A stretch of 46,586 nucleotides of DNA from a virus. This document shows positions 1 through 46,586 of this stretch, piece by piece. The stretch lies in IMG/VR virus record IMGVR_UViG_3300018494_000026, one strand, 5' to 3'. A program made the translations under genes and the position numbers. Numbering within the stretch: position 1 is the stretch's first letter; every line of letters begins with the position of its first letter. The notes beneath the pieces were generated by a model. It was not told the DNA's origin. It saw nothing but the letters and a program-made list of their open reading frames with translations, and ran no database searches.

Positions 1-123
1 TGTTCTTGACGAAGACTCCAATATCATTCAGGTGTCGATTCCTGCGTCTACGGCAAACATTGATGTTTCGTACATGCGTATCGTGGCACATGAGTTCACC
101 AGTCAGTCTATTATCACGGTCAA
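1..123. repeat. Terminal direct repeat, left copy (identical to 46464..46586)
   Basis: Base-by-base comparison of 1-123 with 46464-46586 shows identity over all 123 nt. This fits a circular-assembly overlap or terminal redundancy, giving a unit length of 46,463 bp. Confidence 0.9.
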
Positions 124-148
124 CGAGGAAATCGTCATTGACGAGTAA
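2..148 (+). CDS. 3' end of the wrap-around BppU_N/metallophosphoesterase ORF (continuation of 44707..46586)
   Basis: The frame with codons at 2,5,8... is open from the window edge to TAA 146-148 (...VSYMRIVAHEFTSQSIITVNEEIVIDE*). It is the same frame as the ORF that runs off the right end once the 123-nt repeat is superimposed. Confidence 0.8.
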   Translation, partial: VLDEDSNIIQVSIPASTANIDVSYMRIVAHEFTSQSIITVNEEIVIDE

Positions 149-165
149 GAAAGGAATGATAGGTT

Positions 166-1041
166 ATGGCTATCAAGGAAATCAAGCGGGAATGGAGTCC
201 CTGTCAGCTTGACTATGTAAAGACCTTCCTGCTGCATAGTGAAGCGGATGTGAAGGACTTGCCGAAGTGCTGTATTGGCAGCAAGGCAACGGTGAGTGAA
301 ACGGACAATGAGTATTTCTGCACTGCTGACGGCTGGAAGCTGGGTAGTGAGTTGGGTGGTGGTCAGACCGTCATCCTGGAGGAGACGGAGATGATCACAG
401 TGGATGTTACGCCCGGTATAAGTGGCGCATATCTGCTGGACAAGCCCTTGGCAGCTCCACTTGTGGACGGCGCAACCTATGAAATCGTTTGGGGCGGTGA
501 GAAGTACACCAGTAAGACCGCAGACGCTACGGCTCTCGGAGGTGTGGGAGTTACCACGTACCTGTTAGGTAGAAGCCCTAATGAGGAAAATATGCCTTCC
601 CCCGGCCCGGATTGTCCGTTCATGCTGCTGATCTTCCCCGATGGTGTAGAAGACGCTGGAGTGATGCTTTACGGTCAGATAGATTCCACTGTTATCCCCG
701 ATCTGCCCACCATCTCCATCGTGGAGAAGGCCGGAACGGAAAGCGCAGGGGGCGGGGGTGGCTTCGTTGTCAAGGCAACCATCGTCGGAATGGACAGTAC
801 TGGCACGAATGCTGAACTGGCAGTAGACAAGACGTTTGTCGAAACGATGGAAGCAATTCAAGCCGGAAGGTATGTAGTCTGTCAACTTGATACTGACGGA
901 ACAATTAACCTTTTGCCTGCAATCTCCTACGAACCCGATGCAGCTATTGTATTCATGATTTATTCTGGTGTGGCAACCGTCATGGTGATTATGCAGGCAG
1001 ACGGATCTGCCTCGATGCAAATTCAGGCACCGGAACAGTAA
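166..1041 (+). CDS. Hypothetical protein, 291 aa, with Gly-rich linkers; possibly virion-associated
   Basis: ORF track. The ATG is preceded by AAAGGA. It follows the BppU_N-type ORF directly, and its N-terminus (MAIKEIK) resembles that of the fibre gene at 18596 (MAIKSVD). I recognise no family. Confidence 0.6.
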   Translation: MAIKEIKREWSPCQLDYVKTFLLHSEADVKDLPKCCIGSKATVSETDNEYFCTADGWKLGSELGGGQTVILEETEMITVDVTPGISGAYLLDKPLAAPLVDGATYEIVWGGEKYTSKTADATALGGVGVTTYLLGRSPNEENMPSPGPDCPFMLLIFPDGVEDAGVMLYGQIDSTVIPDLPTISIVEKAGTESAGGGGGFVVKATIVGMDSTGTNAELAVDKTFVETMEAIQAGRYVVCQLDTDGTINLLPAISYEPDAAIVFMIYSGVATVMVIMQADGSASMQIQAPEQ

Positions 1042-1095: not shown

Positions 1096-1125
1096 CTCCA
1101 TGAATGACGAAAGGAGGTGATCCCC

Positions 1126-2598
1126 ATGCTGACAACGGATCAAATCAAGGTCTTTATCGAAAATGACCGAACCAGTGCCAGGAAGATGGCGGCACAGCTT
1201 GGTCAGGATTACTACGAGGGCAAGCATGATATTCTTGACCGCATCATTGTCTATGTGGACGGCAATGGTGTGATGCAGGAGGACAATGTAAACAGCAACA
1301 TCAGGATTGCGCATCCTTTCTTCACGGAGATTGCAGACCAGTGCGTACAGTATGTTCTTTCCGGCAAGGATGGGTTCATCAAGTCTGACATTCCTGAATT
1401 GCAGGAGATTCTTGACGCACGGTATAACAACAATGACGATTTCATCAAGGCTTTGTACGAGGTGCTGACGGGCAGTTCTGTCAAGGGCTTTGAGTATTTC
1501 TACTGCTACAAGGATGAAGAGAACAAGAACCGCTGGGAGTGTGCTGACAGCCTTGGTGTGGTAGAAGTCAGGGCGAAGGAAACGGACGATCACTGCGAGT
1601 ATCTGATTCGCTGGTATGTGGACAGGGTTGATGCTGAGGGGCATCAGGTGAAGCGTATTGAGGTATGGGACGCACAACAGGTGACGTTCTATGACCAGAT
1701 TGATGATGGGGAACTGAATTTGGATGAGGACGAGGAAATCAATCCCCGTCCTCATACTCTTTACACCAAGGACGGGCAGTTGTTCCGGGGCAAGCAGACG
1801 GAGGGAAAGATTCCCTTTATCAAACTGCCGAACAACCGCAAAGAAGGCAGTGACCTTCTCCCTATCAAGGACATCATTGATGACTATGACCTGATGAATG
1901 TTGACCTGTCCAACACCTTGCAGGATACGAATACTTCCTTGTATGTCATCAAGGGATTTGACGGGGACAACCTGGACGAAACCATCCTAAACATCCGTGC
2001 AAAGAAGCATGTGGGTGTGCCGGAGGGCGGCGATTTGGATATTAAGACTGTCGATATTCCTGTGGAAGCCCGGAAGGCGAAGATGGATATTGACAAGGAG
2101 AATATCTACCGTTTCGGCATGGCTCTTGACCCTGACGGAAGGAAGGATACCAGCGCGAAAACCAGCATTGAGATCAAGTCCATGTACGCACGTCTTGACC
2201 TGAAGGCCAATAAGAAGGTTATCAACCTGAAGGCGTTCCTGCGTGAAGTGCTGAAGTTCGACCTGGAAGAGATCAACGCTCAGTCTGAAACGGCATACGC
2301 GATGAAGGATATTTACTTCGACTTTGACGAGAGGGAAGTGCCTTCTAATGCGCTTGAAAATGCTCAGATTGCCTTGACGGAAGCACAGACGCGCAACATG
2401 GAGGTCAACACCATCATGAGTGTGCAAACTGTGATTGACCAGGAAAGCATTGTGAAGAAGATTTGTGAGCAGTTTGACCTGGAATACGAGGAAATCAAGG
2501 ACAAGCTGTCGGAGGAAATGCCGGAAGTCACTGCTGACGCTGCCAAGACTGCGCTGAATAACGCACCTACTGAGCCGGATGTGATTGCCAATGAATAA
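1126..2598 (+). CDS. Portal protein (SPP1 gp6-like)
   Basis: ORF track 1117..2598. I prefer ATG 1126, which lies 8 nt after GGAGGTG. Size is about 490 aa, and the N-terminus (LTTDQIKVFIENDRTSARKMAAQLGQDYYEGKHDIL) is typical of gp6-type portals. It sits upstream of the MuF-like gene. Confidence 0.85.
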   Translation: MLTTDQIKVFIENDRTSARKMAAQLGQDYYEGKHDILDRIIVYVDGNGVMQEDNVNSNIRIAHPFFTEIADQCVQYVLSGKDGFIKSDIPELQEILDARYNNNDDFIKALYEVLTGSSVKGFEYFYCYKDEENKNRWECADSLGVVEVRAKETDDHCEYLIRWYVDRVDAEGHQVKRIEVWDAQQVTFYDQIDDGELNLDEDEEINPRPHTLYTKDGQLFRGKQTEGKIPFIKLPNNRKEGSDLLPIKDIIDDYDLMNVDLSNTLQDTNTSLYVIKGFDGDNLDETILNIRAKKHVGVPEGGDLDIKTVDIPVEARKAKMDIDKENIYRFGMALDPDGRKDTSAKTSIEIKSMYARLDLKANKKVINLKAFLREVLKFDLEEINAQSETAYAMKDIYFDFDEREVPSNALENAQIALTEAQTRNMEVNTIMSVQTVIDQESIVKKICEQFDLEYEEIKDKLSEEMPEVTADAAKTALNNAPTEPDVIANE

Positions 2599-5953: not shown

Positions 5954-5979
5954 ACAACAATCGAAAGGATGAATGAATT

Positions 5980-7002: not shown

Positions 7003-7008
7003 AATGAG

Positions 7009-7080: not shown

Positions 7081-7105
7081 ATGGTCGATAAAAGGAGAGA
7101 AGACC

Positions 7106-8366: not shown

Positions 8367-8367
8367 T

Positions 8368-8886: not shown

Positions 8887-9260
8887 TGAGGGCTGCAACG
8901 CTTGAATTTGTCAACAATCGAATTCTGAGCCTGGGCCTCCCTTATTCCTTCATGGAATGGGCAGAGTATCCGCCTGATGACTATTTCGTGGGGCAGTACA
9001 TCGAAAATCCATCCCCTACGCGGACGGAAAACGGGCATCAGAAAACCACGTTCATCCTGCGCGGCTATACAAGCGGCTCATGGTTGAACCTTGAAACCTA
9101 CAAAGAGAAAATCGAAAAAGGTATCTCTACAACGGCAATCCTTGACGATGGGACGGGGGTTGCCATTTTCTATGACTCTGCAATGGTCGTGCCTACGGGC
9201 GTTGCGGGTTGGAAATCCATCAAAATCAATCTGAATATTCAAGAATGGAAGGTGAATTGA
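8886..9260 (+). CDS. Putative tail terminator / tail completion protein
   Basis: A 124-aa ORF between the gp10-like gene and the major tail gene, with its start overlapping the previous stop. The call rests on position only. Confidence 0.5.
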   Translation: MRAATLEFVNNRILSLGLPYSFMEWAEYPPDDYFVGQYIENPSPTRTENGHQKTTFILRGYTSGSWLNLETYKEKIEKGISTTAILDDGTGVAIFYDSAMVVPTGVAGWKSIKINLNIQEWKVN

Positions 9261-9261
9261 G

Positions 9262-9846
9262 ATGTTGGAAGGCATGAACGGCGTTTCCGCCAAGACTCCT
9301 GAGCAGATTCCTCTTGGTGCTGGCACGATTCACAAGAATCTGAAGTACGAGAAGGATAAAGGCTGGAATCTCGCTGAATCTTGCATCGGCGCGACTTCCG
9401 GTGGCAACAAGTGGTCTGTTGTCCCCAAGTTGTACTATCCGCCTATTGACGGCGTGGGTACGAAGCTGAAGGAAACCGCCACCCAGATTGGCGAAGATGC
9501 CAAGATGGAAATCAACATGATTGAGATAACGAAGGATCTGATTCAGACTTCTACGCTGGGCAAGGCTGGCACTTCTGAGGACACCACCTATGATCTGATT
9601 GAGTCTGCTGGCGAAGTGCTGCCTGAACACTTCTGGGAGAACATTGCCTTTGTGGGCAAGACCCTGAAGGGCAAGAACATTATCATCATCATGGGCAATC
9701 CCCTGTGTTCCTCCGGCATGGAGAACGAGGGCAAGAACGAGGAAAGCGGCGTGAACAAGTACACCTTTGAATGCCATGCAAGCATCAATGACGTGAACCT
9801 GAACAAGCTGCCCTGGAAGATTTACTATCCGAAGGCTACGGCGTAA
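9262..9846 (+). CDS. Major tail (tube) protein
   Basis: A 194-aa ORF directly upstream of the chaperone pair and tape measure, followed by a hairpin. No sheath gene is present, so this is a siphovirus-type tail. Confidence 0.7.
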   Translation: MLEGMNGVSAKTPEQIPLGAGTIHKNLKYEKDKGWNLAESCIGATSGGNKWSVVPKLYYPPIDGVGTKLKETATQIGEDAKMEINMIEITKDLIQTSTLGKAGTSEDTTYDLIESAGEVLPEHFWENIAFVGKTLKGKNIIIIMGNPLCSSGMENEGKNEESGVNKYTFECHASINDVNLNKLPWKIYYPKATA

Positions 9847-10314: not shown

Positions 10315-10644
10315 TTGTATCAGCGGTATGCAAACCCAATGGAACTGCTGGACAATATGCTGATGACGGGTCAGCTTTACAGATTCGTGAGCGAGATTAT
10401 CAAGACGGTCAATGAGGAACTGGAAGAAAAAGCCCTGTGGGAATGGTGGTTACATAAGGATTGGGAACGATCCTGGAAAGAATTCCGCGAGTCCCTGAAT
10501 GATAAACAACATAATGCAGCACCAACGCGACAAGATACTCTGGACATTTTGAATGAGACGATGAATATCATGGCCTCTTTCCGTCCAGATGGCGGAGGTG
10601 AGCAGGATGAATCTATTTCGTCTGTTCGGGGAGATAGCGATTGA
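10315..10644 (+). CDS. Tail assembly chaperone extension (gpT-like), probably expressed as a frameshift fusion with 9905..10264
   Basis: It lies in the -1 frame relative to 9905..10300. That frame is open from 10246, and the track start is only a TTG. Confidence 0.65.
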   Translation: MYQRYANPMELLDNMLMTGQLYRFVSEIIKTVNEELEEKALWEWWLHKDWERSWKEFRESLNDKQHNAAPTRQDTLDILNETMNIMASFRPDGGGEQDESISSVRGDSD

Positions 10645-12343
10645 CGGGACGAGGGCGAACAGAACCCTTGATGACATTGCAAGAAGGGCTGGCATGACAA
10701 CGCAGGAAGTTGAATCGCATTTCAATAAGATAGGTACGGCGGCAGCGGGGATCATGCGGGGCATGGGCGTTGTCGGTGCGGCTATTGGTGGTGCGATGCT
10801 TGCTGTAACGGAAGGAACGAGGGAATACCGTGCGCAGATGGGCTTGCTTGACAGCGCGTTTCAATCCGCTGGGCATTCCTCTGCGGAGGCTAAAAGCACC
10901 TATTCAGAACTGAATGCGGTGCTGGGTGACACGGAGCAGGCTGTGGAAGCGGCACAGCACATTGCCCTGATTGCTGACAACGAAAAGGAAATGAACGAGC
11001 TGACGAAAATTGGCACAGGGATTTTCGCCAGTTACGGCGCAAGCCTTCCCCTTGAGGGGTTGTACGAGGCAATCGGGCACACAAGTGCCCTCGGAGAGGT
11101 GCAGGGCAGCCTCGCAGACGGATTGGAATGGGCTGGAATTTCCGTGGAGGATTTCAACAAAAAACTTGAAAAATGCTCCAATGAGGAAGAACGGCAAGAC
11201 CTCATCATGAAGACCTTGAAGGATACCTACGGGGAAGCGGCAACGCAATACCAGGCCACAAACAAGGACGTGATGGAGGCCCGAAAAGCCCAGGAGCGGC
11301 TCACGGATGCAATGGCTGAATTGGGCCGTGTTGGTGAACCCATCCTCACGGCAATCAAAAACAAGGTTGCGGGCATGGCGGAGGCGGCTATACCACACAT
11401 TCAGAATCTTGTCAACAAGGTCAAGGACATGAAGAAGTGGATAGCTGACAACAAGGATACCGTGGACAAATGGAAGGCGGCTATCATCGCTGTTACTGTC
11501 AGCACTGGGTCTTTTCTACTCATCATGAATTGGGGCAAGATCATGGCGGCTGCGAAAACAGCGATCATGGCAACCCGCGCGGCGGTGATCCTGTTCAATG
11601 CGGCTCTGAGGGCGAATCCGATTGGGCTTGTGATTTCCCTGTTGGCTGGACTGGTGGCAGGATTCATCTATTTGTGGAACAACAATAAGGGATTCAGACA
11701 GTTCTGGATTGATTTGTGGAACAAGCTCAAATCTGCCTGTTCAACTGCGATTACGGGCATTAAAAACAAGTTCAACGACCTGAAAGATGCTGCCGGGAAG
11801 GTGAAGAAGTGGTTTGAGGATATTCGCAAATCCATTTCGGACAAGATCGAATCGGCAGGGAAATCGGTGGGCAAAGTCGTGGACAAGATCAAGGGATTCT
11901 TCCCGCTGAAAATCGGCAAGATTTTCTCCAATCTGAAGATACCGAAGATTTCTGTCAGCGGCGGCAAAGCTCCTTACGGCATCGCTGGAAAAGGCAAAAT
12001 GCCTTCCTTTGACGTGAAGTGGAATGCTGAAGGCGCGATTTTCACAAAGCCCACCATCTTCAATACCCGGAATGGCTTGCAGGGCGTGGGTGAGGCTGGT
12101 GCAGAAGCGGTGCTTCCTGTGGCAAAGATGATGGACTATGTTTCTACTGCTGTGCGCAATGAGACAGGGAATATCGGGCAGATCATCATGGAGCAGAACA
12201 GGCTCTTGCTTGAATTCCTGCGGAGGAACATGCCGAAAATGGTTCAGCTTGATTCCGGGGCGATGGTGGGGGCGTTGCTTCCTGCTGTTGATACTGGGCT
12301 GGCTGACAGGTGGGAACATGTTAGAAGGGGCAATGTGAGGTAA
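10607..12343 (+). CDS. Tape measure protein, copy 1 (578 aa)
   Basis: Track ORF 10589..12343. I prefer ATG 10607, which lies 6 nt after GGAGGTG. It has a TMP-type N-terminus (MNLFRLFGEIAIDG), helical repeats, hydrophobic segments (IIAVTVSTGSFLLIMNW, GLVISLLAGLVAGFIYLW) and a TMP-type C-terminus (GVGEAGAEAVLPV). Confidence 0.8.
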   Translation: MNLFRLFGEIAIDGTRANRTLDDIARRAGMTTQEVESHFNKIGTAAAGIMRGMGVVGAAIGGAMLAVTEGTREYRAQMGLLDSAFQSAGHSSAEAKSTYSELNAVLGDTEQAVEAAQHIALIADNEKEMNELTKIGTGIFASYGASLPLEGLYEAIGHTSALGEVQGSLADGLEWAGISVEDFNKKLEKCSNEEERQDLIMKTLKDTYGEAATQYQATNKDVMEARKAQERLTDAMAELGRVGEPILTAIKNKVAGMAEAAIPHIQNLVNKVKDMKKWIADNKDTVDKWKAAIIAVTVSTGSFLLIMNWGKIMAAAKTAIMATRAAVILFNAALRANPIGLVISLLAGLVAGFIYLWNNNKGFRQFWIDLWNKLKSACSTAITGIKNKFNDLKDAAGKVKKWFEDIRKSISDKIESAGKSVGKVVDKIKGFFPLKIGKIFSNLKIPKISVSGGKAPYGIAGKGKMPSFDVKWNAEGAIFTKPTIFNTRNGLQGVGEAGAEAVLPVAKMMDYVSTAVRNETGNIGQIIMEQNRLLLEFLRRNMPKMVQLDSGAMVGALLPAVDTGLADRWEHVRRGNVR

Positions 12344-12345
12344 AG

Positions 12346-12374
12346 AAAAGGGACGGCAAATCGCCGTCCCTTTC
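12346..12374. terminator. Terminator between the convergent TMP1 and reverse-strand genes
   Basis: gggacggc / gccgtccc forms an 8-bp stem with an aaatc loop. It has an A-run on the left and only TTT on the right, so it should be stronger for the minus-strand gene and leaky for late (+) transcription. Confidence 0.7.
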
Positions 12375-12376
12375 AG

Positions 12377-12877
12377 TTAGAAACCTAAGCCCTTGTATGG
12401 TGCGAAAGTCATGCTGTCGTATTCAACGCAGACAACTTGATTGTTTTTTAGCGTTACTTTTCCAACCGAGCCACCGGAAAGCATATCGAAGTCGTGAACA
12501 AGTTTCCCGTTTGTGTAGATTTCCAAACTGCAATACCTCTGTCCTGCTGTGACGGTGTATGTTCCTGCCGGAATGTCTACACCGACAACGTATTCACCCA
12601 TGGGCACTACAACTTCACCTTGCACATTGCCACGGCTTCTAAGTTCTAACTGCATAATGGCAATGAGAACTTTTAGATAATTGTCGCTGTAACCAGAAAT
12701 AACTTCTGCGCTGGCCTGATGGCTAAAGACTGCGATTTCTTCTATTGTCATACCTTCAGCAAGGCAATTTTCGATAATTTGGGTGTATTCATCCATTGCC
12801 GATTCAGCCGATGCAACGCAATGGAAAACAAGCAGGAGAGTGAGAAGGAACGAAACAAAGGGACACAACTTTTTCAT
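12377..12877 (-). CDS. Secreted protein (Sec signal peptide), moron-like gene embedded between the two tape-measure genes
   Basis: ORF track. GGAGG lies 8 nt upstream. The signal peptide is MKKLCPFVSFLLTLLLVFHCVASA|ES (AXA site, no lipobox). The C-terminal part is beta-rich (GEYVVGVDIPAGTYTVTAG). It has its own promoter and terminator. Confidence 0.8.
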   Translation of the reverse strand: MKKLCPFVSFLLTLLLVFHCVASAESAMDEYTQIIENCLAEGMTIEEIAVFSHQASAEVISGYSDNYLKVLIAIMQLELRSRGNVQGEVVVPMGEYVVGVDIPAGTYTVTAGQRYCSLEIYTNGKLVHDFDMLSGGSVGKVTLKNNQVVCVEYDSMTFAPYKGLGF

Positions 12878-12906
12878 GTTGGCAACCTCCTATATCGTGA
12901 TACCTA

Positions 12907-12935
12907 TATGATGCATAAAAATCGGTTTTTGTCAA
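12907..12935 (-). promoter_or_regulatory. Sigma70-type promoter for the reverse-strand secreted-protein gene
   Basis: On the minus strand: TTGACA (12935-12930), a 17-nt spacer ending in TGc, then ATCATA (12912-12907). Confidence 0.6.
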
Positions 12936-12959
12936 GAGGGGAAGAAAGGCGGTGGGAAC

Positions 12960-14666
12960 ATGGATATATTTACGCTTGTTGGTAAAATCACGATTGAAAT
13001 TCAAGACGCATTGAACAACATCAATACCGTCATGACAGAAGTTCAAGAATTGGACGCGCTGTTGAATGGCACTCAAACTACAACTCAAACAACCGGGCAA
13101 GCAGTTGAAACGGCTACAAAGGATGCAACTGAAAAAGGCACCAGCACTTTGACCAAATGGAGCGTCATGATGGGCAACCTGGCAACACAGGCAGCAAACA
13201 AAGTGTATGACGCTGGCAAGAGCTTCTTGCAGACGGGCTACGAGTTCAACGCGAACATGGATTTGTGGCGAAACCAGTTGCAAAACATGCTGAGTCTCGA
13301 TTTCGCAGGGGCGGATGCATTTTTGAACAAATTACATCAGTTTGCTATTGACACGCCCTACTCTATGGATGAAGTTATGTCAAACGCAATTATGCTGATT
13401 GGCAATAAAAAGATAAGAGAATCAACAGATATTATTGATTTGCTTACGATCATCGGCAATGTGTCAAACGGCGAAAACGCAGCATTTGGCAGCATTGCAA
13501 AGGGCATCATGCAGGTTATGACGAAGGGAAAAGTCCAGGCGGAAGAAGCTAACCAACAGTTCGCAGAACGAGGAGTTGATGTTTGGCAGATTCTTGCTGA
13601 CTATTTTTCCTTTATCGACCGTGACGGTCAAGATGTATGGGAATCAGATGATGTATCGAGCTTGGGAACGATAAACCCTACCATCATGGCAACATCTGAG
13701 GAATTCATGGCGGCGATGAAACATGCTGCATTGCAAGATGGCGGCTTTTATTACGGCAGAATGGATGCCATGATGAATACTGCGACTGGTCAGGCACAGC
13801 GTATGCAGGACGCATACCAAAAGGCTGCTGGCGCATTTACAGGTGGCGTTTTTGAAACGTTTGCAACTCAAACGATTCCTGCAATCAGCGAGATCATGGA
13901 GAAGCTCGACAAGTGGGCAACAGAAAACCCGGAAGCCTTAAAGAATCTTGGTGAAGCATTTAGCAATTTTGCGACAGGCGGGTTGGATGTCTTTCTTGGC
14001 AGTTTGCAAGGGTTGCTTGGTTGGTGGAATGATAATCGTGCGGCATTCGACTCTTTGCTTGTACTACTTGGCGGCATCGCGCTGTATATCGGACATCCTG
14101 CGGCAGGCACGGCTTTGATTGCCACTGGTGCGTTTGATGCGTATACGGATGCAAAAAAGCAAATAGAAGAAGGTTCACCAGTAGGACAGTATGTGAATAA
14201 AGACCCGGAGATTAAAGAGGCTGTGAAAAATGGGACAACAGATGAACTTACTGGTACGGATTGGTTTACCTATCATGTAGGTGCACCTTTAGTTCAGTTT
14301 ATGCACGATTTGTTTCCAGGACTTAACGTAGACCCGTCTGTGATTGAAGATCCTGCCGAGGATGAAACCGACAATAAATATCAGACTCCCCTTTGGCAAC
14401 TGAACAACTTAGACACAGACGGAGTTGGTGGAAACAACGGAAGTATGTCCTTGTTTGGTTCGCTTCTGCAACAGCTTTCCACATTGAAAACTGATGTAAC
14501 GGCAGCGGCAAAAGAAGGTGTGTCTGAAGGCGTTGGTAATATCACCATCACCGGATATGTCACCACGGGTGATGTAAAACTGCAAGATGGTACGCTTGTC
14601 GGATCGCTGATGCCTCAGATTAACTTACAGCTTGGCTGGCAAAATGAGTTGAGTTCGAGGGGGTGA
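12960..14666 (+). CDS. Tape measure protein, copy 2 (568 aa, TP901-type core region)
   Basis: The N-terminus (MDIFTLVGKITIEI) parallels TMP1. The core pattern (FAIDTPYSMDEVMSNAIML...GSIAKGIMQVMTKGKVQAEEANQQFAERGVDVWQIL) resembles the TP901 tape-measure core. It also has a hydrophobic segment (LLVLLGGIALYIGHPAAG). Confidence 0.85.
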   Translation: MDIFTLVGKITIEIQDALNNINTVMTEVQELDALLNGTQTTTQTTGQAVETATKDATEKGTSTLTKWSVMMGNLATQAANKVYDAGKSFLQTGYEFNANMDLWRNQLQNMLSLDFAGADAFLNKLHQFAIDTPYSMDEVMSNAIMLIGNKKIRESTDIIDLLTIIGNVSNGENAAFGSIAKGIMQVMTKGKVQAEEANQQFAERGVDVWQILADYFSFIDRDGQDVWESDDVSSLGTINPTIMATSEEFMAAMKHAALQDGGFYYGRMDAMMNTATGQAQRMQDAYQKAAGAFTGGVFETFATQTIPAISEIMEKLDKWATENPEALKNLGEAFSNFATGGLDVFLGSLQGLLGWWNDNRAAFDSLLVLLGGIALYIGHPAAGTALIATGAFDAYTDAKKQIEEGSPVGQYVNKDPEIKEAVKNGTTDELTGTDWFTYHVGAPLVQFMHDLFPGLNVDPSVIEDPAEDETDNKYQTPLWQLNNLDTDGVGGNNGSMSLFGSLLQQLSTLKTDVTAAAKEGVSEGVGNITITGYVTTGDVKLQDGTLVGSLMPQINLQLGWQNELSSRG

Positions 14667-14670
14667 TTAG

Positions 14671-15093
14671 ATGCGAGGCATTACATTTGACAACAAGCAT
14701 TCCTATTGGGATTGGGGCTTGATGCTGACGAAACCTCCTGCAATCAGTACACCTGAACCGAAAACGCATTATGTGGACATTCCAGGAGCGCATGGTGCAA
14801 TGGATTTGACAGAGGCGCTGACAGGAAAGGTGCAGTACAAGAACAGGAAAATCGAATTGGAGTTCATCACAACGGCAGGCCGGGAAGACTGGTCTGCCGT
14901 TTATAGTGACATTCTTTCGGAATTGCACGGGCAGATGAAGGAAATCGCTCTTGACGATGACCCGATGCACTACTACAAAGGGCGAGTGACGGTTGGTGAT
15001 CCTGAGCGCGTCAATGATAAGACTGTCATGGTCAAGATGACGGCAGAGGTTGAGCCTTTCAAGAAAACCTATGAAGGGACGGCGATGCTGTAA
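14671..15093 (+). CDS. Distal tail protein (Dit), copy 1, short form (140 aa)
   Basis: The N-terminus (MRGITFDNKHSYWDWGL...YVDIPGAHGAMDLTE...LDDDPMHYYKGR...EPFK) is typical of the siphovirus Dit N-domain. It lies directly after a TMP. Confidence 0.75.
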   Translation: MRGITFDNKHSYWDWGLMLTKPPAISTPEPKTHYVDIPGAHGAMDLTEALTGKVQYKNRKIELEFITTAGREDWSAVYSDILSELHGQMKEIALDDDPMHYYKGRVTVGDPERVNDKTVMVKMTAEVEPFKKTYEGTAML

Positions 15094-16514
15094 TGTACAA
15101 AATGAAAGCGGATGGGGTCGTTTTTTACGACCCTTCCTCTGATGATATGGCACTGCATGTACTGTATCCCAAGGCAAAGTACGAGTTAAACAAGGCAGGA
15201 ACACTGACATTCACGATGCTTCCGGGTAACGTGATGTATGATGGTTTGCATAAACTAAAAACCGTTGTCACCATTGAACAGGATGATGAAGTGATTTTCC
15301 GTGGTCGTGTTCTGGAAACGGAGACAGACCTTTACAATCAGAAGAAGGTTCACTGCGAGGGCGAATTGGCCTATCTGCTGGACAGCATGCAGCGGCCTTA
15401 CAAGTACGATGGCAGCGCGAAAGAATACCTTCCCATGCTGATTGAAAACCACAATGCAGACGTGGAGGAAAGCAAACGATTCACGGTGGGGCTGATAACT
15501 GCGCTGACGGATGAGGATACTGTCAAGATTGAAAGCGAGAATTACGCAAATACGCTGGAAGAGATCAAGTCGCTTCTGCTGAATGAGTTCAACGGCTATC
15601 TGCGTGTGCGCTGGGAAGATGGTGTTCGCTATCTTGATTATGTGGACAAGTTCAATCAGACATGTTCACAGGAAATCAATTTCGGTGTGAATCTTGTGGA
15701 TATTGAAACCAATGTCAATGCAATGGATGTTTGTTCTGTACTGATTCCGCTGGGCAGATCGAAAAAAGGAAAATACACAAGCATTGCGAAGGCGAACGGC
15801 GGCAAGGATTACATCGAGGATGCTGCGCTGATAGCAAAGTATGGGCGAGTTGTCAAGACCTATACATGGGACGAAGTAGAAGACCCGGAAGAACTGCTTG
15901 AATTGGGTCAGAAACACATGGAACGGATGGCAGCAGAAACAACGCTGACCATCAAAGCGGTTGACCTCCACGCTGTTGGAGCGGATGTGGACGGCATCAG
16001 GCTTGGCGATACGGTGAAACTTGTTTCCGCCCCGCATAGGCTGGACAAGGAAGATGTATGTACGAAGATTGACCTGGACATTGAAAACCCGGAGAAGTCT
16101 GAGTACACCTTTGGCCTTCCTATGGAAACGCTGACGGACAGAAACGCGAGTGCAACAAGGAAGAACAAGTCAAGCATGGATCACATGCACAAGTGGCTGA
16201 CGGAGACGGACGATTCATTGCGAATCGTTGTAGATAAAGTGAATGGTCTTATCTTACTGCAAGCCGATTATGTGACGATTAAAGCATTAGAAACGGAAAT
16301 TGAAGGACTGCTGAAAGCGGAAAATCTGCAAGCGGCGATTGCAGATTTGGATAACGTTGCAGTTTCTTCATTGTCTGTTAGCGGCACTGCGCATTGCACA
16401 AACCTTGCAGTGCATGGCGCGGGAAGTGTGGACGGTGATTTGTCAGTCAGCGGTGCAATAAACGGCATTTACTTGGACGACCTTGAAGCGCGTGTTAGTG
16501 CGCTGGAGGGATAA
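15093..16514 (+). CDS. Tail-associated (Tal-like) minor structural protein, copy 1 (473 aa)
   Basis: TAATG overlap with Dit1. Tal N-domain pattern is present (ELNKAGTLTFTM..., FRGRVLETE, CEGELAYLLDSMQRPY), with a coiled-coil C-terminus. Confidence 0.75.
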   Translation: MYKMKADGVVFYDPSSDDMALHVLYPKAKYELNKAGTLTFTMLPGNVMYDGLHKLKTVVTIEQDDEVIFRGRVLETETDLYNQKKVHCEGELAYLLDSMQRPYKYDGSAKEYLPMLIENHNADVEESKRFTVGLITALTDEDTVKIESENYANTLEEIKSLLLNEFNGYLRVRWEDGVRYLDYVDKFNQTCSQEINFGVNLVDIETNVNAMDVCSVLIPLGRSKKGKYTSIAKANGGKDYIEDAALIAKYGRVVKTYTWDEVEDPEELLELGQKHMERMAAETTLTIKAVDLHAVGADVDGIRLGDTVKLVSAPHRLDKEDVCTKIDLDIENPEKSEYTFGLPMETLTDRNASATRKNKSSMDHMHKWLTETDDSLRIVVDKVNGLILLQADYVTIKALETEIEGLLKAENLQAAIADLDNVAVSSLSVSGTAHCTNLAVHGAGSVDGDLSVSGAINGIYLDDLEARVSALEG

Positions 16515-16516
16515 AT

Positions 16517-17155
16517 ATGAAGGGGGTTTCATTCCTTGGGTTTCACTCCTACCGTGACCTTCACATTCTGCTGACTGGAAAGGAGATCGGTTCGCCGGAA
16601 GTCAAGCGGCAAACCATCGACATTGAAGGGGCAGACGGTGAACTGGATTACACGGATTTCTTTGGTGAACCCAAATACACGAATGCGCAGCACCGATTTG
16701 ATTTTGAAAGCATTCAGCCCTGGAATGAACAACTCTCACAGTTTACGGACATCAAGAACAAGATACATGGGAAGAAGGGAAGGATTGTGCTGGACAACGA
16801 TCCTTCCTTCTTCTATGTGGGCAGGTGCTTTGTATCGGCCTACAAGAATGAAGTGACCATCGGCAGGATCAGCATTGAGTGCGACTGTGAACCGTACAAG
16901 TACAAGATGCAACCGACAATAATGTCGGTCACAATTGACGGCACTCAGACCATTATCTTGACAAATGCGCGGAAACGTGCTGTGCCGACCATCACCACCA
17001 CGTCGGACATGACAATTTCCTTCGGGGAAGGGATATGGACGAACCGGGCAGGGACATTCACTATTCCTGAATTGGAACTTGTGGAGGGTGAGAACCTTGT
17101 CACTGTTACAGGCACAGGAACGATCACGTTCACATGGCAGGAGGCGGTGCTATGA
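16517..17155 (+). CDS. Distal tail protein (Dit), copy 2, long form (212 aa)
   Basis: It is paralogous to 14671..15093 (MKGVSFLGFHSYRDL...IDIEGADGELDYTD...LDNDPSFFYVGR...EPYK) and carries an extra C-terminal beta domain. Confidence 0.75.
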   Translation: MKGVSFLGFHSYRDLHILLTGKEIGSPEVKRQTIDIEGADGELDYTDFFGEPKYTNAQHRFDFESIQPWNEQLSQFTDIKNKIHGKKGRIVLDNDPSFFYVGRCFVSAYKNEVTIGRISIECDCEPYKYKMQPTIMSVTIDGTQTIILTNARKRAVPTITTTSDMTISFGEGIWTNRAGTFTIPELELVEGENLVTVTGTGTITFTWQEAVL

Positions 17156-18573
17156 CGTACCGGGTGTATTGTGACAGCATGCTTCTGTATCACAGCAAAC
17201 TTGAAAACCTTGTGTTGTTCAATCCGTCTGTGGAATTGGAGGTCAACAAAACCGGGTCGTTCACATTCACAGTGCCTTCAAACCATCCGTATTATGGCCT
17301 GATTCACAAGATGAAAAGCATCATCACGGTATATCAGGACGATTACCTGCTGTTCCGTGGAAGGGTGCTTGACGATGAAATAGGCTGGCATAATGAGAAG
17401 GCTGTCACCTGTGAAGGGGAGATGGCCTTTTTGCTTGACAGTATCATGCGACCCTATGACTTTTCCGGCAGTATCCCGGAATACTTGGCTGTGCTGCTGG
17501 ACAGTCACAACAGTCAAGTGGATGCGGATAAGCGGTTTACGCTGGGCAAGGTGACGGTTGCAGACGCAAATGACTACATCGTGCGGTCAAACATCGACTA
17601 CACCGACACATGGACTGAAATGCAGGACAAGCTGGTCAAACTGCTTGGCGGGTATCTGCAAATCAGGCATGAAGGCGATGCGCATTACATTGACTATTTG
17701 CAAGACTTCACACTGCTTGCTCCGCAAAAAATCGAATTCGGCAAGAATCTGCTGGACTTGAAACGCATTCGGAAGGGCGCGGACATTGCAACAGCGGTCA
17801 TCCCACTGGGCGCGAAACTGAAGGATGCAGACGGTAAAGACACGGACGAACGCCTGACCATTGCAGAGGTCAATGCTGGGCTTGACTACATTGTGGATGA
17901 AGATGCGAAAGCACAATTCGGCCTGATTGTCAAGACGGTCATATTTGACGATGTGACCGATGCAAACAATCTGCTGACGAAAGGCAAAGCATACCTTGCA
18001 GGACTTGTCAAGTTGCCTGAAACCATTGAGTTGACGGCGGCTGATATGGCAACGCTGGGGCAGGACATTACGTCCTTTCACATTGGCACAAAGGTTCAAG
18101 TGAAAAGCAATCCCCACGGCATTGACCAACTTTTCACGGTCAGCAAGCTATCCATCAAATTGCTTGACCCGGCATCGAATCACTTGACGCTGGGCGGGGT
18201 GCTGGATACCTTCACGGCATCAACAAGCAAGATCACAGCCATCACCGGAAAGGATGGCAAGAACGGAGAGGATGCTGTCACCTTGCGGATTGATTCCAGC
18301 AGGGGGACTGTGTTCAAGAACAGCGAAGTTTCGACTGTTCTGAATGTTGTCATTTTCAAGGGAGGCAAAACGATCACGGATGCGGCCGCTATGAGGGCTG
18401 AGTTCGGGAGCAACGCCTATCTTGAATGGCAATGGCAGCGTATGGGGGAAGCGACCTTCGGGACGATATTGACAACGGACAGCAGAATATCGAACGAAGG
18501 ATTTGCTTTGTCGCTGGCACCGAGCGACGTAGACACAAAGGTTGTTTTCAAATGCCAACTTGTCTCGGAATGA
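17152..18573 (+). CDS. Tail-associated (Tal-like) minor structural protein, copy 2 (473 aa)
   Basis: Track ORF 17134..18573. ATG 17152 overlaps the Dit2 stop (ATGA) and lies 7 nt after GGAGG. It is paralogous to 15093..16514 (EVNKTGSFTFTV, FRGRVLDDE, CEGEMAFLLDSIMRPY). Confidence 0.75.
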   Translation: MTYRVYCDSMLLYHSKLENLVLFNPSVELEVNKTGSFTFTVPSNHPYYGLIHKMKSIITVYQDDYLLFRGRVLDDEIGWHNEKAVTCEGEMAFLLDSIMRPYDFSGSIPEYLAVLLDSHNSQVDADKRFTLGKVTVADANDYIVRSNIDYTDTWTEMQDKLVKLLGGYLQIRHEGDAHYIDYLQDFTLLAPQKIEFGKNLLDLKRIRKGADIATAVIPLGAKLKDADGKDTDERLTIAEVNAGLDYIVDEDAKAQFGLIVKTVIFDDVTDANNLLTKGKAYLAGLVKLPETIELTAADMATLGQDITSFHIGTKVQVKSNPHGIDQLFTVSKLSIKLLDPASNHLTLGGVLDTFTASTSKITAITGKDGKNGEDAVTLRIDSSRGTVFKNSEVSTVLNVVIFKGGKTITDAAAMRAEFGSNAYLEWQWQRMGEATFGTILTTDSRISNEGFALSLAPSDVDTKVVFKCQLVSE

Positions 18574-20143: not shown

Positions 20144-20183
20144 GGAATGATAGGCACTCTGACCCTTGAAAGGGGGTCAGTAC
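20144..20183 (+). promoter_or_regulatory. Intergenic cassette copy: GGAATGATAGG + CACTCTGACCC + SD-sequestering hairpin
   Basis: ggaatgatagg is at 20144-20154 and cactctgaccc at 20155-20165. The stem ctgaccc (20159-65) / gggtcag (20074+100, i.e. 20174-80) includes the GGGGG Shine-Dalgarno of ATG 20184. Confidence 0.6.
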
Positions 20184-25005: not shown

Positions 25006-25031
25006 GGGTCAGAGATGACCTATCATTCCGG
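25006..25031 (-). promoter_or_regulatory. Intergenic cassette copy on the minus strand (CCGGAATGATAGG...CTCTGACCC)
   Basis: The reverse complement of 25006-25031 reads ccggaatgataggtcatctctgaccc. The 11-mer ggaatgatagg is exact. Confidence 0.55.
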
Positions 25032-27318: not shown

Positions 27319-27371
27319 CCGGAATGATAGGCGTTTTTGATCCCAATACAAACGGGAAGGGATTGAAAACG
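27319..27371 (+). promoter_or_regulatory. Intergenic cassette copy between the two methyltransferase halves
   Basis: ccggaatgatagg is at 27319-27331. It is followed by a 13-bp stem (27332-44 / 27359-71, two G-U pairs) that ends 1 nt before GTG 27373. Confidence 0.6.
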
Positions 27372-28554: not shown

Positions 28555-28602
28555 CCGGAATGATAGTGGTCGTTTCTCGCCCCAATAAACGAAGGGGAGA
28601 AA
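28555..28602 (+). promoter_or_regulatory. Intergenic cassette copy (CCGGAATGATAGt) with a weak CCCC/GGGG hairpin
   Basis: ccggaatgatag is at 28555-66. cgcccc (28079+500, i.e. 28579-83 region) pairs with ggggag (28594-99), which is the SD for ATG 28608. Confidence 0.5.
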
Positions 28603-42859: not shown

Positions 42860-43270
42860 ATGTTGACAGAACAAAAACAGCAGTTCATTGAAGAGTATAT
42901 TAAACTCAAATGCAAGAACGCAACCAAAGCAGCAATTGCAGCAGGATATAGTGAGAAATCAGCAGCAGCACAAGCGAGTCAGCTTCTTAAAAACTGTGAA
43001 GTTGCGGAGTATTTGAAGAAGAGGAAAGCGGAATTAGCTCAGGATTTGAGAGATGAATTCATCTTTGACGCTTTAGAAGCTAAAAAAGAGATGTATAAGA
43101 TCATGACTGACCCAACAGCAGATAACAGGGACAAGATCACTATTGCAAGAGACTTCTTAGATAGAGCAGGATTCAAGCCGGGAGAAGAAGTCAAGCTATC
43201 TGGCAGTATTAATAACCCCTTTGCAGACCTCTCCACGGATGAACTAAAGGCGCTGATTAACAATGGATAG
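42860..43270 (+). CDS. terS: Terminase small subunit
   Basis: The N-terminal HTH pattern (QQFIEEYIKLKCKNATKAAIAAGYSEKSAAAQASQLLKN) is typical of Terminase_2/P27-type small subunits. It lies directly upstream of terL. Confidence 0.85.
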   Translation: MLTEQKQQFIEEYIKLKCKNATKAAIAAGYSEKSAAAQASQLLKNCEVAEYLKKRKAELAQDLRDEFIFDALEAKKEMYKIMTDPTADNRDKITIARDFLDRAGFKPGEEVKLSGSINNPFADLSTDELKALINNG

Positions 43271-44657
43271 ACTGCAATATATACGGTTAGAAGCACAGAA
43301 AGAGCTTTCCCGTCGTAGCTTCTGGGAATACTGCAAATTTCGTGCTCCTGACTTTTACAGGGAAGATAGACCGTTCCTGAAAGACTTGTCAGACCGCTTG
43401 CAATGGTTCATCCAGGAAGCATCAGAGCAAATCATGGTCGTTAATATCCCACCACGTCATGGAAAGAGTAGAACGGCTACAATGTTTGTAGACTGGCTCT
43501 TTGGTGTATATGGCAAGTCAATTCAAGTCATGACGGGATCATATAACGAGACGCTTTCAAGCACATTTGCAAAGCAGGTGCGCGATACAATAGCAGAGAA
43601 GCCTACACAGGGTGTCACGGTCTTTTCTGACATCTTCCCCGGTGTTAATATCAAGTATGGCGAAGCATCAGCGCAGAAATGGGCGTTGGAAGGTTCACAG
43701 CTTGCTAACTATCTTGCAACGTCTCCCAGTGGTACGGCAACGGGCTTTGGCTGTAATATCATGCTCATTGATGACCTGATAAAGAATGCAGAAGAGGCAT
43801 ATAACGAGAACCATCTGCAAAAGCTGGTTGATTGGTTCACAAATACCATGCTTTCCCGTTGTGAGAATGGTTTCAAAATCATTATCATCATGACGCGCTG
43901 GTCTACAGGAGACCTTGCCGGGTTTGTCCTGGATAACTATCCTAACGTTGTACACGTCAATTATAAGGCTGTGTTAGATGATGGTTCTATGCTATGTCCT
44001 GATATCCTCAGTGCAGAAGATTATGCATTGAAGATAAAGAACATGAACAAGGACATAGTAGCTGCTAACTATCAGCAAGAGCCTATCGACGTAAAAGGCC
44101 GTCTATATACGAGTATTAAAACCTATAGCGAGATACCCAAGGATGAAAAGGGTAACTCGCTTTTTTCGTATTTGCTCAATTATACAGATACGGCTGATAA
44201 AGGCAGTGACTATCTGTGTTCTATCTGTTATGGCATGTATGGCGACGAATATTACATCCTTGATGTGCTGTACAGCAAAGATGCAATGGAAGTAACAGAA
44301 CCAGCAACGGCCCAGATGCTAACCCGTAACAAGATAGGCTGTGCGATCATTGAAAGCAATAACGGCGGCAGAGGCTTTGCAAGGAATGTTGCCAGGATAT
44401 GCAAGGAGCAGGGTAACAAACATACCAATGTCAAGTGGTTTACGCAAAGCAAGAACAAAGAAGCAAGGATACTGTCTAACAGTGCGTCTGTGATGGCAAA
44501 TGTTTATTTCCCGGTCAACTGGCAAGACAAATGGCCGGAGTTTGCCGATGCATTGATCAGGTATCAAAGAGAAGGCAAGAACGCCCATGATGACGCGCCT
44601 GACGCGCTTACAGGCGTTTACGAGAATCCTAAACCACTTTCCCACTGGGTAACGTGA
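43263..44657 (+). CDS. terL: Terminase large subunit
   Basis: Walker A-like is PPRHGKS and Walker B is IMLIDDL. The C-terminal nuclease region is YTDTADKGSDY...IESNNGG...HDDAPDAL. Confidence 0.9.
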   Translation: MDRLQYIRLEAQKELSRRSFWEYCKFRAPDFYREDRPFLKDLSDRLQWFIQEASEQIMVVNIPPRHGKSRTATMFVDWLFGVYGKSIQVMTGSYNETLSSTFAKQVRDTIAEKPTQGVTVFSDIFPGVNIKYGEASAQKWALEGSQLANYLATSPSGTATGFGCNIMLIDDLIKNAEEAYNENHLQKLVDWFTNTMLSRCENGFKIIIIMTRWSTGDLAGFVLDNYPNVVHVNYKAVLDDGSMLCPDILSAEDYALKIKNMNKDIVAANYQQEPIDVKGRLYTSIKTYSEIPKDEKGNSLFSYLLNYTDTADKGSDYLCSICYGMYGDEYYILDVLYSKDAMEVTEPATAQMLTRNKIGCAIIESNNGGRGFARNVARICKEQGNKHTNVKWFTQSKNKEARILSNSASVMANVYFPVNWQDKWPEFADALIRYQREGKNAHDDAPDALTGVYENPKPLSHWVT

Positions 44658-44706: not shown

Positions 44707-46586
44707 ATGGGAGCAACCACACGAAACCACCCATACACGGTGGATTTTGACAAGCCATTAACCCGGCAGAGTTTCGGCGTGTTGGGTGAAGGTGACAGCA
44801 ACGGTGATGCATTCGTGTTTACGCTGATTCGCAATGGTGCTGCGCTTGCGCTGACAAGTGCCGTACTTGTTACAGGCTATTTTGTCCGGCCTGATGGGGA
44901 TACGGTTGTCCTGAAGGGCAGTGTTGCTAATGGGAAAGCGTCTGTCACGCTTCCTCAGTCCTGCTATGTATCAGAGGGCAGAGGTGCGCTGACGGTGAAA
45001 GCCACGATGGATGGCGATACCACAACCATTGCTATTCTTGATGGCTTTGTCAGGAAGACAACGACAGACACATTGGTTGACCCCGGTACGGTGATGCCTT
45101 CGATTGAAGAGATTCTAAGCGGGAATACAAACATTGCGGTTGTTCCGTCCTACTGGAAAGCACACATTGACAACCGGATTGTCAGCATCCGTGAAGCGAT
45201 GGCGGCGGCTGGCTGGAATCGAAGTGCTTTCCTGTGGTACAACGATGCGCATTGGTCGTATAACTACAAGAATTCCCCTGCGCTGCTGAAATACATGTAC
45301 CAGCATACGCCGATTAACAAGACCATTTTCGGCGGTGACATTGTTGACAATGAGGGTGATGCTTCTTCGGATATGGCTTATCTGTGGGAGTGGAGAGCGG
45401 CTGTACGTGGCCTGCCTAATCATCATAGCGTTGTTGGCAATCACGATGACAGCAATGAAATTGTTGATCGGTGGAGCAATGCGTATGTTTACAACTTCCT
45501 GCTGGCGGCGGAGGAATCATCCGATGTGATGCGCGGTGATGAGGGATTCTATTACTACATAGACGATCAGCCCGAAAAGACGCGCTATCTGTACCTTGAT
45601 ACAGCGTCTTATCACGGTAACCTTGAATACAACGCGAAGCAGCAAGCATGGCTGAAGCAGGCGCTTTTGTCCACTCCTGCGGGATGGCACATCGTGGCTG
45701 TGTCGCACATCTGGGTGAAGGTAGATTACACAGTGTGGCCTCCTGTTGTGACCGGGCTTGATTCTTCCGGCAAGGTTGCACTGGATATGTTCGATGCGTA
45801 TAACGCGCGGACAGGTGATTTCTCCGGTTGTACTGGCAAGGTGGAGTTCGCTATCGGTGGTCATAGCCATGTAGACGGTGATTTTACGAGCGATGGCGGC
45901 ATTCCTGTTATTGTGACGGAATGCGATTGCAGAGGCGTTCGCAGCGGTCTTGATTGCGTCAAGGGGACAATCTCAGAGCAATCTGTCAACGCGGTCATTG
46001 CGGACTACAGCAACGGCATTGTGACCATCGTTCGTGTTGGACGTGGCAACAGCCGGATTGTCAACCTTGACGGCAGCGGCAGTGCAGATATTCCCGATAA
46101 TGAACCTGATGTTCCAGAAGAGCCTGACGCACCGACTGACAACTTCACGAATCAGCTTCCTCTTGCTACGGATAAGGACGGAAACATCTACAACGGCATC
46201 GGCTATAAGACCGACACCCGTATTAGTACGTCAAGCGGATACGATCAAGACAGGGACGAAAGCGGCTGGTGTTCCTCTGGCTACATCCCAGTAAAAACGA
46301 ATGATGTTGTGCGATTCGCGAACTGTGTATTCAATAACACATATGCTATTGACGGCACGAATCGTCAGCAGATTCTCTACTTCGACAAGGATAAGAATCT
46401 GACGGGCTATTCTATGGCTGATGACATCGTAATGCAATCCACATCTTCTACAAGCTGGAATGCTGTTCTTGACGAAGACTCCAATATCATTCAGGTGTCG
46501 ATTCCTGCGTCTACGGCAAACATTGATGTTTCGTACATGCGTATCGTGGCACATGAGTTCACCAGTCAGTCTATTATCACGGTCAA
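44707..46586 (+). CDS. BppU_N-like / calcineurin-type metallophosphoesterase / C-terminal beta-sandwich protein (634 aa including the wrap-around part 2..148)
   Basis: It is absent from the ORF track because it has no stop inside the window. My own translation from ATG 44707 (RBS AAAGGGAG) found no stop. The N-terminus (YTVDFDKPL...GDSNGDAFVFTLIRNGAAL) resembles the BppU_N domain. The phosphoesterase motifs are DAH, GGDIVDN, GNHDD, SHIW and GGHSHVD. Confidence 0.75.
   Translation, partial: MGATTRNHPYTVDFDKPLTRQSFGVLGEGDSNGDAFVFTLIRNGAALALTSAVLVTGYFVRPDGDTVVLKGSVANGKASVTLPQSCYVSEGRGALTVKATMDGDTTTIAILDGFVRKTTTDTLVDPGTVMPSIEEILSGNTNIAVVPSYWKAHIDNRIVSIREAMAAAGWNRSAFLWYNDAHWSYNYKNSPALLKYMYQHTPINKTIFGGDIVDNEGDASSDMAYLWEWRAAVRGLPNHHSVVGNHDDSNEIVDRWSNAYVYNFLLAAEESSDVMRGDEGFYYYIDDQPEKTRYLYLDTASYHGNLEYNAKQQAWLKQALLSTPAGWHIVAVSHIWVKVDYTVWPPVVTGLDSSGKVALDMFDAYNARTGDFSGCTGKVEFAIGGHSHVDGDFTSDGGIPVIVTECDCRGVRSGLDCVKGTISEQSVNAVIADYSNGIVTIVRVGRGNSRIVNLDGSGSADIPDNEPDVPEEPDAPTDNFTNQLPLATDKDGNIYNGIGYKTDTRISTSSGYDQDRDESGWCSSGYIPVKTNDVVRFANCVFNNTYAIDGTNRQQILYFDKDKNLTGYSMADDIVMQSTSSTSWNAVLDEDSNIIQVSIPASTANIDVSYMRIVAHEFTSQSIITV
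46464..46586. repeat. Terminal direct repeat, right copy (identical to 1..123)
   Basis: See the left copy. Confidence 0.9.

Follow-up and report, generated by a model that had tools for sequence, protein, structure and literature searches.

The subject of this analysis is IMG/VR virus record IMGVR_UViG_3300018494_000026, a stretch of viral DNA of 46,586 nucleotides that we call the window, and within it a gene for a 634-residue protein that lies between the genes of the large terminase subunit (terL) and the portal. In one polypeptide the protein joins an N-terminal β-sandwich, a calcineurin-type metallophosphoesterase and a C-terminal β-sandwich. The reading that we favour, and hold to be moderately probable, is that of a virion-anchored phosphodiesterase fibre that is docked to the baseplate and acts on wall polymers. 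Its kind, the enzymatic accessory fibre of a Gram-positive siphophage, is already known, and enzymes of the calcineurin type are common on the phage fibres of metagenomes. A preliminary description of the locus had been made from its sequence alone, and its claims are taken up where the results bear on them.

Genes at the terL–portal junction

Positions 1-123 of the window are an exact direct copy of 46464-46586, a terminal redundancy of 123 bp, and the window is a circular or terminally redundant contig with 46,463 unique bp. The gene for the 634-residue protein crosses this junction. Its open reading frame (ORF) runs from 44707 off the end of the window, and 44707..46586 (+) holds codons 1-626 plus 2 nt, as taken from the ORF list, the translation and the identity to protein P0002 once the terminal repeat is collapsed. 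It resumes at 124: by the redundancy and the sequence read, 124..148 (+) supplies the final base of codon 627 and then codons 628-634, with the stop codon at 146-148 (NEEIVIDE*). The product is identical to P0002, which is called on 17 other contigs. The preliminary description had the length of this frame right and its continuation wrong: it added 2..148 and thereby counted the repeat twice, while the true continuation is 124..148 because 1-123 only repeats 46464-46586. As 123 is divisible by 3, a naive read through the junction stays in frame and would double 41 residues.

The gene shares the junction with a second one. ORF291 (166..1041, +; 291 residues) begins 17 nt past the stop of the 634-residue gene, directly after it as had been described. 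The slot that holds the two is bounded upstream by terL (43263..44657, +; phrog_30251, E value 4e-176; Pfam terminase RNaseH-like domain) and downstream by the gene of an SPP1-type portal (1117..2598, +; PF05133, E 6e-52).

Domain architecture of the 634-residue protein

An AlphaFold model built on 63 homologues, with a mean predicted local distance difference test (pLDDT) score of 89.3, divides the protein into three domains, residues 1-120, 147-465 and 481-634, separated by low-confidence linkers. In the PHROGs database the protein matches one unnamed family alone, phrog_7158. The model was compared with the Protein Data Bank (PDB) by Foldseek, and fold matches were also collected from BFVD.

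The N-terminal β-sandwich (residues 1-120; 44707..45066, +; pLDDT 85-98) is a BppU_N-like anchoring domain by both fold comparisons. Its best Foldseek matches in the PDB are baseplate anchors with E values of 4e-8 to 4e-5. Among them are the baseplate side fibre of NF5 (9m8o_P; root-mean-square deviation 2.2 Å over 121 columns, E 6e-8), the baseplate fibres of 80alpha (6v8i_AN/AM), the BppU chains in the TP901-1 baseplate (4v96; E 6e-6) and the isolated BppU N-domain (3uh8; E 4e-5, template-modelling score normalized to the target, TM(target), 0.59). Many 'BppU domain protein' entries are found among the BFVD matches, and two homologues of the window protein reach the Pfam family PF10651 by sequence, P0077 (E 9e-8) and the tail protein of phage Sabazios (E 7e-15). 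The resemblance of the window's own domain to BppU_N, as modelled, is one at fold level, and in this form the earlier assignment holds. A low-confidence linker follows (residues 121-146; 45067..45144, +), with pLDDT below 50 at 128-141 and predicted disorder; the alignment to most relatives starts only from about residue 140.

At the other end, a C-terminal module of 150 residues (residues 481-634; 46147..46586, ending at window position 145, +) is a confident β-sandwich by the secondary structure of the model, as the preliminary description had proposed, while the carbohydrate-binding role given to it there is putative. No sequence relative of the module was found when profile A3 was searched against the PDB and the A3 members against Pfam. 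The module is more divergent (30-40% identity) than the enzyme core (50-74%). It is duplicated in tandem in locus L018 (9171-10088), and copies lie N-terminal to the enzyme in L010, L030, L038 and L046. Such shuffling, duplication and divergence is the behaviour expected of an exchangeable binding tip and suggests this role for the module, whose binding is putative.

An intact phosphoesterase active site

Between the two β-domains lies the calcineurin-type metallophosphoesterase (residues 147-465; 45145..46101, +), which is supported by a Pfam match, invariant ligands and the fold. Metallophos (PF00149) covers residues 176-389 with 30.9 bits against a gathering cutoff of 21.5 (E 4.6e-7). All five motifs named at the outset were found, DAH at 180, GGDIVDN at 209, GNHDD at 244, SHIW at 333 and GGHSHVD at 384, and together they give the complete DxH / GD / GNH[D/E] / H / GHxH set, which supplies the catalytic histidine and all seven metal ligands. 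The metal site is thus intact on inspection, and D180, H182, D211, N245, H246, H334, H386 and H388 are invariant in the 63 homologues at 38-73% identity. Because the metal site and the catalytic histidine never vary across these sequences, the enzyme is predicted, with near certainty, to be active.

The modelled fold agrees with this assignment: pLDDT exceeds 90 across most of 147-465, and the domain is an α-β-β-α sandwich whose nearest structures are Rv0805, purple acid phosphatase and UshA (Foldseek probability 1.00, E 6e-9 to 1e-7). PDB sequence searches with the single protein and with the family profile A1 returned nothing meaningful. A glycerophosphodiester phosphodiesterase (GDPD) domain is absent, in that Pfam gives Metallophos alone and all fold neighbours are metallophosphoesterases.

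Relatives of the enzyme

A word-seeded search gave more than 639 family members. Scanned exhaustively with HMMER, the family amounts to 421 representatives of clusters at 50% identity for E ≤1e-30 and to 3008 for E ≤1e-10. What is conserved is the enzyme, alone or together with the C-terminal module, and it usually forms the C-terminal end of proteins of 440-2200 residues. The modules upstream of it in relatives comprise BppU_N, collagen triple helix, Phage_fiber_rpt, YadA_head, the helical stalk of the phi29 head fibre, DUF859 and collagen-flanked surface repeats (CFSR), and in many loci the upstream neighbour of the enzyme is a Tal-like or tail-fibre protein. Database entries of the family are unnamed "metallophosphatase domain" or "tail" proteins.

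The preliminary description had called the combination of domains unusual. This does not stand, since the combination is also present in the cultured phage Sabazios, the sole INPHARED match to the 634-residue protein, and the enzyme family comprises about 421 clusters. In phage G001 (IMG/VR, 44.6 kb), whose tail genes are syntenic with those of the window, an orthologue with a core 60% identical to the window's lies between Dit140-Tal606 and Dit214-Tal472. In locus L013 a separate 388-residue BppU_N protein is encoded directly before a 475-residue enzyme that lacks the N-domain, and this gene pair is a split form of the BppU_N-enzyme fusion. L015 carries two tandem phosphoesterase genes (4939-9380) that are 24% identical.

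The organism labels of the metagenome-assembled genomes (MAGs) in which relatives occur are almost all gut Clostridia (Oscillospiraceae, Acutalibacteraceae, Christensenellales). A 4.5-kb contig, L028 (CAAGGT010000314.1), whose terL is 94% identical to the window's, was binned in a 'Bacteroidaceae' MAG. We discarded this label as a host signal; given the size of the contig and the placement of all other relatives in Clostridia, it is probably a binning error.

The terL–portal junction as a cargo slot

How unusual the position of the gene is was judged from 71 IMG/VR loci in which terL could be identified and the portal is homologous to the window's (48-84% identity). The distance between the two genes is about 2.9 kb in the window and has a median of 107 bp in these loci, where it is at most 150 bp in 38, between 150 and 1000 bp in 26 and above 1 kb in 7. 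The enzyme is present in this junction in none of the 71. The statement that the gap is normally empty is borne out by these distances. The further statement that the location is unusual is right in general and wrong for this lineage: the location is rare, yet in the window's lineage it is a recurrent cargo slot, found next to two unrelated terminase families.

The contents of the slot vary from phage to phage. Besides the window, L001, L028 and L055 carry the enzyme plus a protein that starts with N60, the conserved N-terminal module of ORF291 described below. L002 has the enzyme, an N60 protein with leucine-rich repeats (N60-LRR) and a 437-residue protein. In L054 a 218-residue protein with the same N-domain but no enzyme is followed by an N60 protein and a 289-residue protein, and in L056 an N60-LRR protein and a 508-residue protein occur with no enzyme. 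G001, whose enzyme is in the tail module, has in the slot a collagen-repeat protein of the 437/508-residue type. Up to three gene families thus occupy the slot, each with a conserved N-terminal module and a variable body, and this pairing of anchor and body, the usual signature of virion-attached adhesins, suggests such a role for them.

The 218-residue protein of L054 (2442-3098) lies directly after terL and has the same BppU_N-like N-domain, 34-35% identical over about 115 residues, with no enzyme; the anchor has therefore been swapped independently of its cargo. The third slot family, absent from the window, is encoded at 9264-10577 in L002, 3708-4577 in L054, 6274-7800 in L056 and 6100-7762 (-) in L058. 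Its members share an N-terminal stretch of about 130 residues (52-79% identical) and have variable bodies of 289-554 residues; collagen repeats occur in one of them, and a domain from the middle of ORF291 recurs in some. Downstream of terL, L013 (767-9371) encodes in succession proteins of 280 and 712 residues, a phrog_372 tail-protein fragment, the BppU_N protein and the enzyme, with no recognisable portal within 9 kb. This fibre-like gene run is possibly the same cargo slot in a much enlarged form.

ORF291 and its N-terminal module

ORF291 is built from the N60 module, a Gly-rich linker, a β-sandwich and a C-terminal α/β domain (166..1041, +, from the ORF list; model with pLDDT 88.8 and three domains). 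No match below E 1e-3 was obtained for it in Pfam, PHROGs or Foldseek against the PDB with the pLDDT-89 model. N60 (166..345, +) is a lineage-specific module: the first 57-62 residues are 69-95% identical in 50 relatives, whose bodies have 175-496 residues, several with LRR_5. The differences between N60 genes fall largely on third codon positions, and the conservation is therefore apparently at the protein level. The rest of ORF291 is shared with other slot proteins, in that its β-sandwich is 34-38% identical to a domain of the 437/508-residue family and its C-terminal α/β domain also ends the LRR versions.

In the preliminary description ORF291 was the partner of the enzyme. It is not an obligate one, since its N60 family occupies the slot without the enzyme in L054 and L056, which makes a conserved component of the virion, and not the enzyme, the most likely docking partner of N60. 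From these sequence comparisons, ORF291 is probably a separately anchored adhesin, co-resident with the enzyme. The idea of a BppL-like subunit held by the enzyme protein is weakened by the same two loci.

Directly upstream of the ORF291 start codon, in a ribosome-binding context, lies the motif GGAATGATAGG (153..163, +). By a count of 11-mers the window has four exact copies and one single-mismatch copy, against 0.75 expected; the copies are at 153-163, 20144-20154, 27321-27331 and 28557-28567 on the plus strand and at 25019-25029 on the minus strand. Another copy stands just before the DUF859 tail-protein gene, and in L002, L028 and L056 the motif is likewise conserved ahead of the N60 gene.

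Proposed role of the 634-residue protein

On the reading favoured here, the BppU_N-like N-domain would dock the protein to the virion, most likely to a tail tip based on Dit and Tal, and the flexible linker would hold out the two-metal phosphoesterase together with the C-terminal β-sandwich as a binding module. On contact with the host, presumably a member of the gut Clostridia of Gram-positive type (Oscillospirales or Christensenellales), the binding module would take hold of a glycopolymer of the cell wall, in which the enzyme would cleave phosphodiester bonds, for example those of teichoic-acid type or those between phosphate-bridged repeat units of a wall polysaccharide. Such cleavage would open the way for the tail tip or destroy the receptor. 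ORF291 would be a second appendage, independently anchored through N60 and presenting a variable binding body. Both genes would be read within the late operon, from a hypervariable cargo slot. The scheme rests on the baseplate-anchor fold of the N-domain, the fibre and baseplate setting of relatives, the invariant metal site, the shuffled and divergent C-terminal module and a cassette that lacks a promoter or terminator of its own. Domain architecture, intact active site, fibre setting of relatives and recurrence of the slot are directly observed; that the protein becomes part of the virion, where it docks, how it oligomerises and what it cleaves are what we infer.

Several points weigh against the scheme. 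Pfam gives no match to BppU_N (PF10651) with residues 1-160 alone at E values up to 10, and DUF7734 appears only below threshold. The gene lies outside the tail module; lysis genes sit in the head module too, and position alone is therefore no proof of a structural role. In the literature we found nothing that combines BppU-type anchors with phosphoesterases, and no characterised member of the family. Two further points, which concern the folds of the N-domain and of the enzyme, each bear on a different explanation.

Folds like that of the N-domain are also found on neck and connector proteins, namely 9mt4_G and 8gtd_M in Foldseek and a lactococcal neck passage structure in BFVD. They are consistent with an appendage on the neck or capsid instead of the baseplate, the slot then encoding head or collar fibres, on the pattern of lactococcal neck passage structures or phi29 head fibres, that bear the enzyme and the ORF291 adhesin. 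This is the main alternative, and we consider it rather unlikely. Both genes adjoin the portal, and relatives are encoded downstream of the portal (L021), between MuF and scaffold genes (L008) or downstream of the major capsid protein (L036). The anchors also differ by location. N-domains from the slot are 41-64% identical to one another and 20-33% identical to the tail-located copy of G001, with enzyme cores equally conserved; and at equal portal divergence (about 54%) slot N-domains are 41-48% identical to the window's and the G001 tail copy 27%, with cores at 59-60%, which hints at different docking sites. Set against this, the best fold matches are baseplate anchors, both homologues with a clear context (Sabazios and G001) are in the baseplate gene block, and gene position is a weak guide where holin and endolysin also lie within the head module.

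Two candidate links to the head were rejected. In P0047 a match to PF11133 had raised the possibility of capsid attachment, but it is limited to the helical stalk of the phi29 head fibre (profile 198-262) and includes no capsid-binding part. The 985-residue protein encoded after the portal in L021 was considered as an injected head protein in which MuF is fused to the enzyme; it has neither a MuF domain nor similarity to the window's MuF.

If the neck or head were the docking site, the slot would be a third host-contact device, separate from the two tail-tip gene sets, with interchangeable anchors (BppU_N-like, N60 and the 130-residue module) and one appendage carrying a calcineurin-type phosphodiesterase; we give this idea little credence. 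Were it true, the enzyme would be the first with a calcineurin-type fold to be demonstrated on a virion, and perhaps the first to be displayed from a neck or capsid.

The second point concerns the substrate. Rv0805, purple acid phosphatase and UshA, the nearest folds, use small phosphoesters and nucleotides rather than polymers, and further neighbours of the domain are Mre11/SbcD and Dbr1. With its neighbours among nucleotide and small-ester enzymes (Rv0805, the 5'-nucleotidase UshA, Mre11/SbcD, Dbr1), the protein could be a virion fibre that leaves wall polymers intact, either as a receptor-binding scaffold or as an enzyme acting on extracellular DNA, RNA or nucleotides in biofilm or mucus. 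We regard this as improbable. The invariance of every catalytic and metal residue over 63 diverged sequences argues for catalysis, and the fast-evolving putative binding module beside the enzyme fits a surface-polymer target; moreover, the characterised virion phosphodiesterases cited here, those of Ld17 and phi29 gp12, are described in our source as acting on host wall components.

Should the enzymes indeed cleave teichoic-acid-like or phosphate-bridged wall polysaccharides, the family would be a new class of phage depolymerases. Its roughly 421 clusters at 50% identity, mostly from phages of uncultured gut Clostridia, would then provide probes of the wall chemistry of Oscillospirales and Christensenellales as well as candidate determinants of host range. 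The terL–portal slot, with three families of anchor plus variable body, offers a compact natural system to study the exchange of accessory adhesins between phages.

Genome context

Upstream of the slot lies terS (42860-43270), and MuF (2585-3514) follows the portal. The remaining genome is that of a temperate siphophage: it encodes a serine integrase, and its structural genes include those for the scaffold, the major capsid protein, the major tail protein and a DUF859 tail protein. A pair of tape-measure genes, together with two Dit-Tal pairs, lies at 10589-18573, and likewise at 1-10400 in L003. The head module includes, downstream of MuF and ahead of the scaffold gene, a holin (Phage_holin_6_1, 3911-4264) and an endolysin (amidase plus PG_binding_1, 4294-5187), and this embedding of the lysis cassette in the head operon recurs in the lineage, with the same placement in L001 and L054-L056. 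A small endonuclease VII / HNH-like ORF (phrog_3281, 7106-7480) separates the major capsid gene from those of the head-tail adaptors. Just upstream of terS, relatives encode ArdA, an AcrIC5-like protein and an ArdC-N-like protein (L001 505-2479; L056 1841-2149). A recent foreign insertion of the enzyme cassette was considered and rejected, as the cassette matches the genome in GC content and carries neither its own promoter nor its own terminator.

In this setting the enzyme might also belong to no virion structure at all and be a moron-type protein, either a cytoplasmic cyclic-nucleotide phosphodiesterase that blunts signalling-based defence or a lysis-accessory hydrolase of wall polymers. 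We consider this highly improbable. It accords with the best fold match, the cyclic-nucleotide phosphodiesterase Rv0805, with the position of the slot beside the region of anti-defence cassettes upstream of terS, and with the lysis genes embedded in the same head module. An anchor, the fibre stalks and Dit/Tal-flanked positions of relatives and a putative C-terminal binding module would, on the other hand, be purposeless in a cytoplasmic enzyme. The protein also has neither a signal peptide nor a membrane segment, and its gene is co-oriented and tightly packed within the late structural operon, all of which argues against such a product.

Comparison with known systems

The closest known counterpart of the window protein is the 'tail protein' AYH91850.1 of phage Sabazios (MH809528, Coetzeevirus), a cultured phage of Lactiplantibacillus plantarum. 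Here, too, BppU_N (E 7e-15) and then Metallophos (E 2e-8) follow one another in one polypeptide of a Gram-positive siphophage. The two proteins differ in that the Sabazios protein is only 22% identical, has 556 residues and lacks the C-terminal module, and its gene has the canonical position directly after those for the tape-measure protein (TMP), Dit and Tal. The paper on the Sabazios genome does not discuss the protein.

BppU of TP901-1 (ORF48) and Tuc2009 and gp19 of NF5 share with the window protein the N-terminal Ig-like β-sandwich, which in those phages anchors host-recognition proteins to the Dit ring. The side fibre of NF5 is attached to the baseplate through its Ig-like domain (PMC12917162). 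Beyond the anchor the proteins diverge: in BppU a helical trimerising linker comes next, and the C-terminal domain carries the BppL receptor-binding trimers, whereas the window's anchor leads into a disordered linker, the enzyme and the putative binding module. The orthologue in G001 and the Sabazios gene follow Dit and Tal in the tail module, whereas the window gene lies between terL and portal.

For the enzyme, the nearest solved folds are Rv0805 (a class III cyclic-nucleotide phosphodiesterase) with GpdQ-type enzymes and plant purple acid phosphatase, which have the same metal site. They are 10-20% identical to the window enzyme (Rv0805 19-20%) and, unlike it, are free-standing cellular enzymes with no fibre or binding domains. 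The metallophosphatases on record for phage K, P100-like phages and Enterococcus phages are non-structural. The bacterial PhoD, whose fold is of the metallophosphoesterase type, is a secreted phosphate-starvation enzyme of a different (PhoD-like) family, and no direct similarity to the window enzyme was detected. PhoD of B. subtilis is a metal-dependent phosphodiesterase that cleaves glycosylated wall teichoic acid internally (PMC7086022), and endo-acting phosphodiesterases can therefore use such polymers.

In function, the precedents are the baseplate glycerophosphodiesterase of Ld17 (Cornelissen et al. 2016) and the degradation of teichoic acid by phi29 gp12, both as cited in PMC6116005. Together with the GDPD domains of enterococcal and staphylococcal tail lysins, these enzymes have the role that we propose for the window protein, the cutting, at the tail tip, of the phosphodiester-linked anionic wall polymers of Gram-positive hosts. 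Their folds, a GDPD TIM barrel or a β-helix, are unrelated to the two-metal calcineurin-type sandwich of the window enzyme, for which this activity is a prediction. Where the characterised phage enzymes that cut phosphodiesters in the wall have GDPD or β-helix folds, the window protein points to a large, unstudied family of calcineurin-type enzymes at fibre tips.

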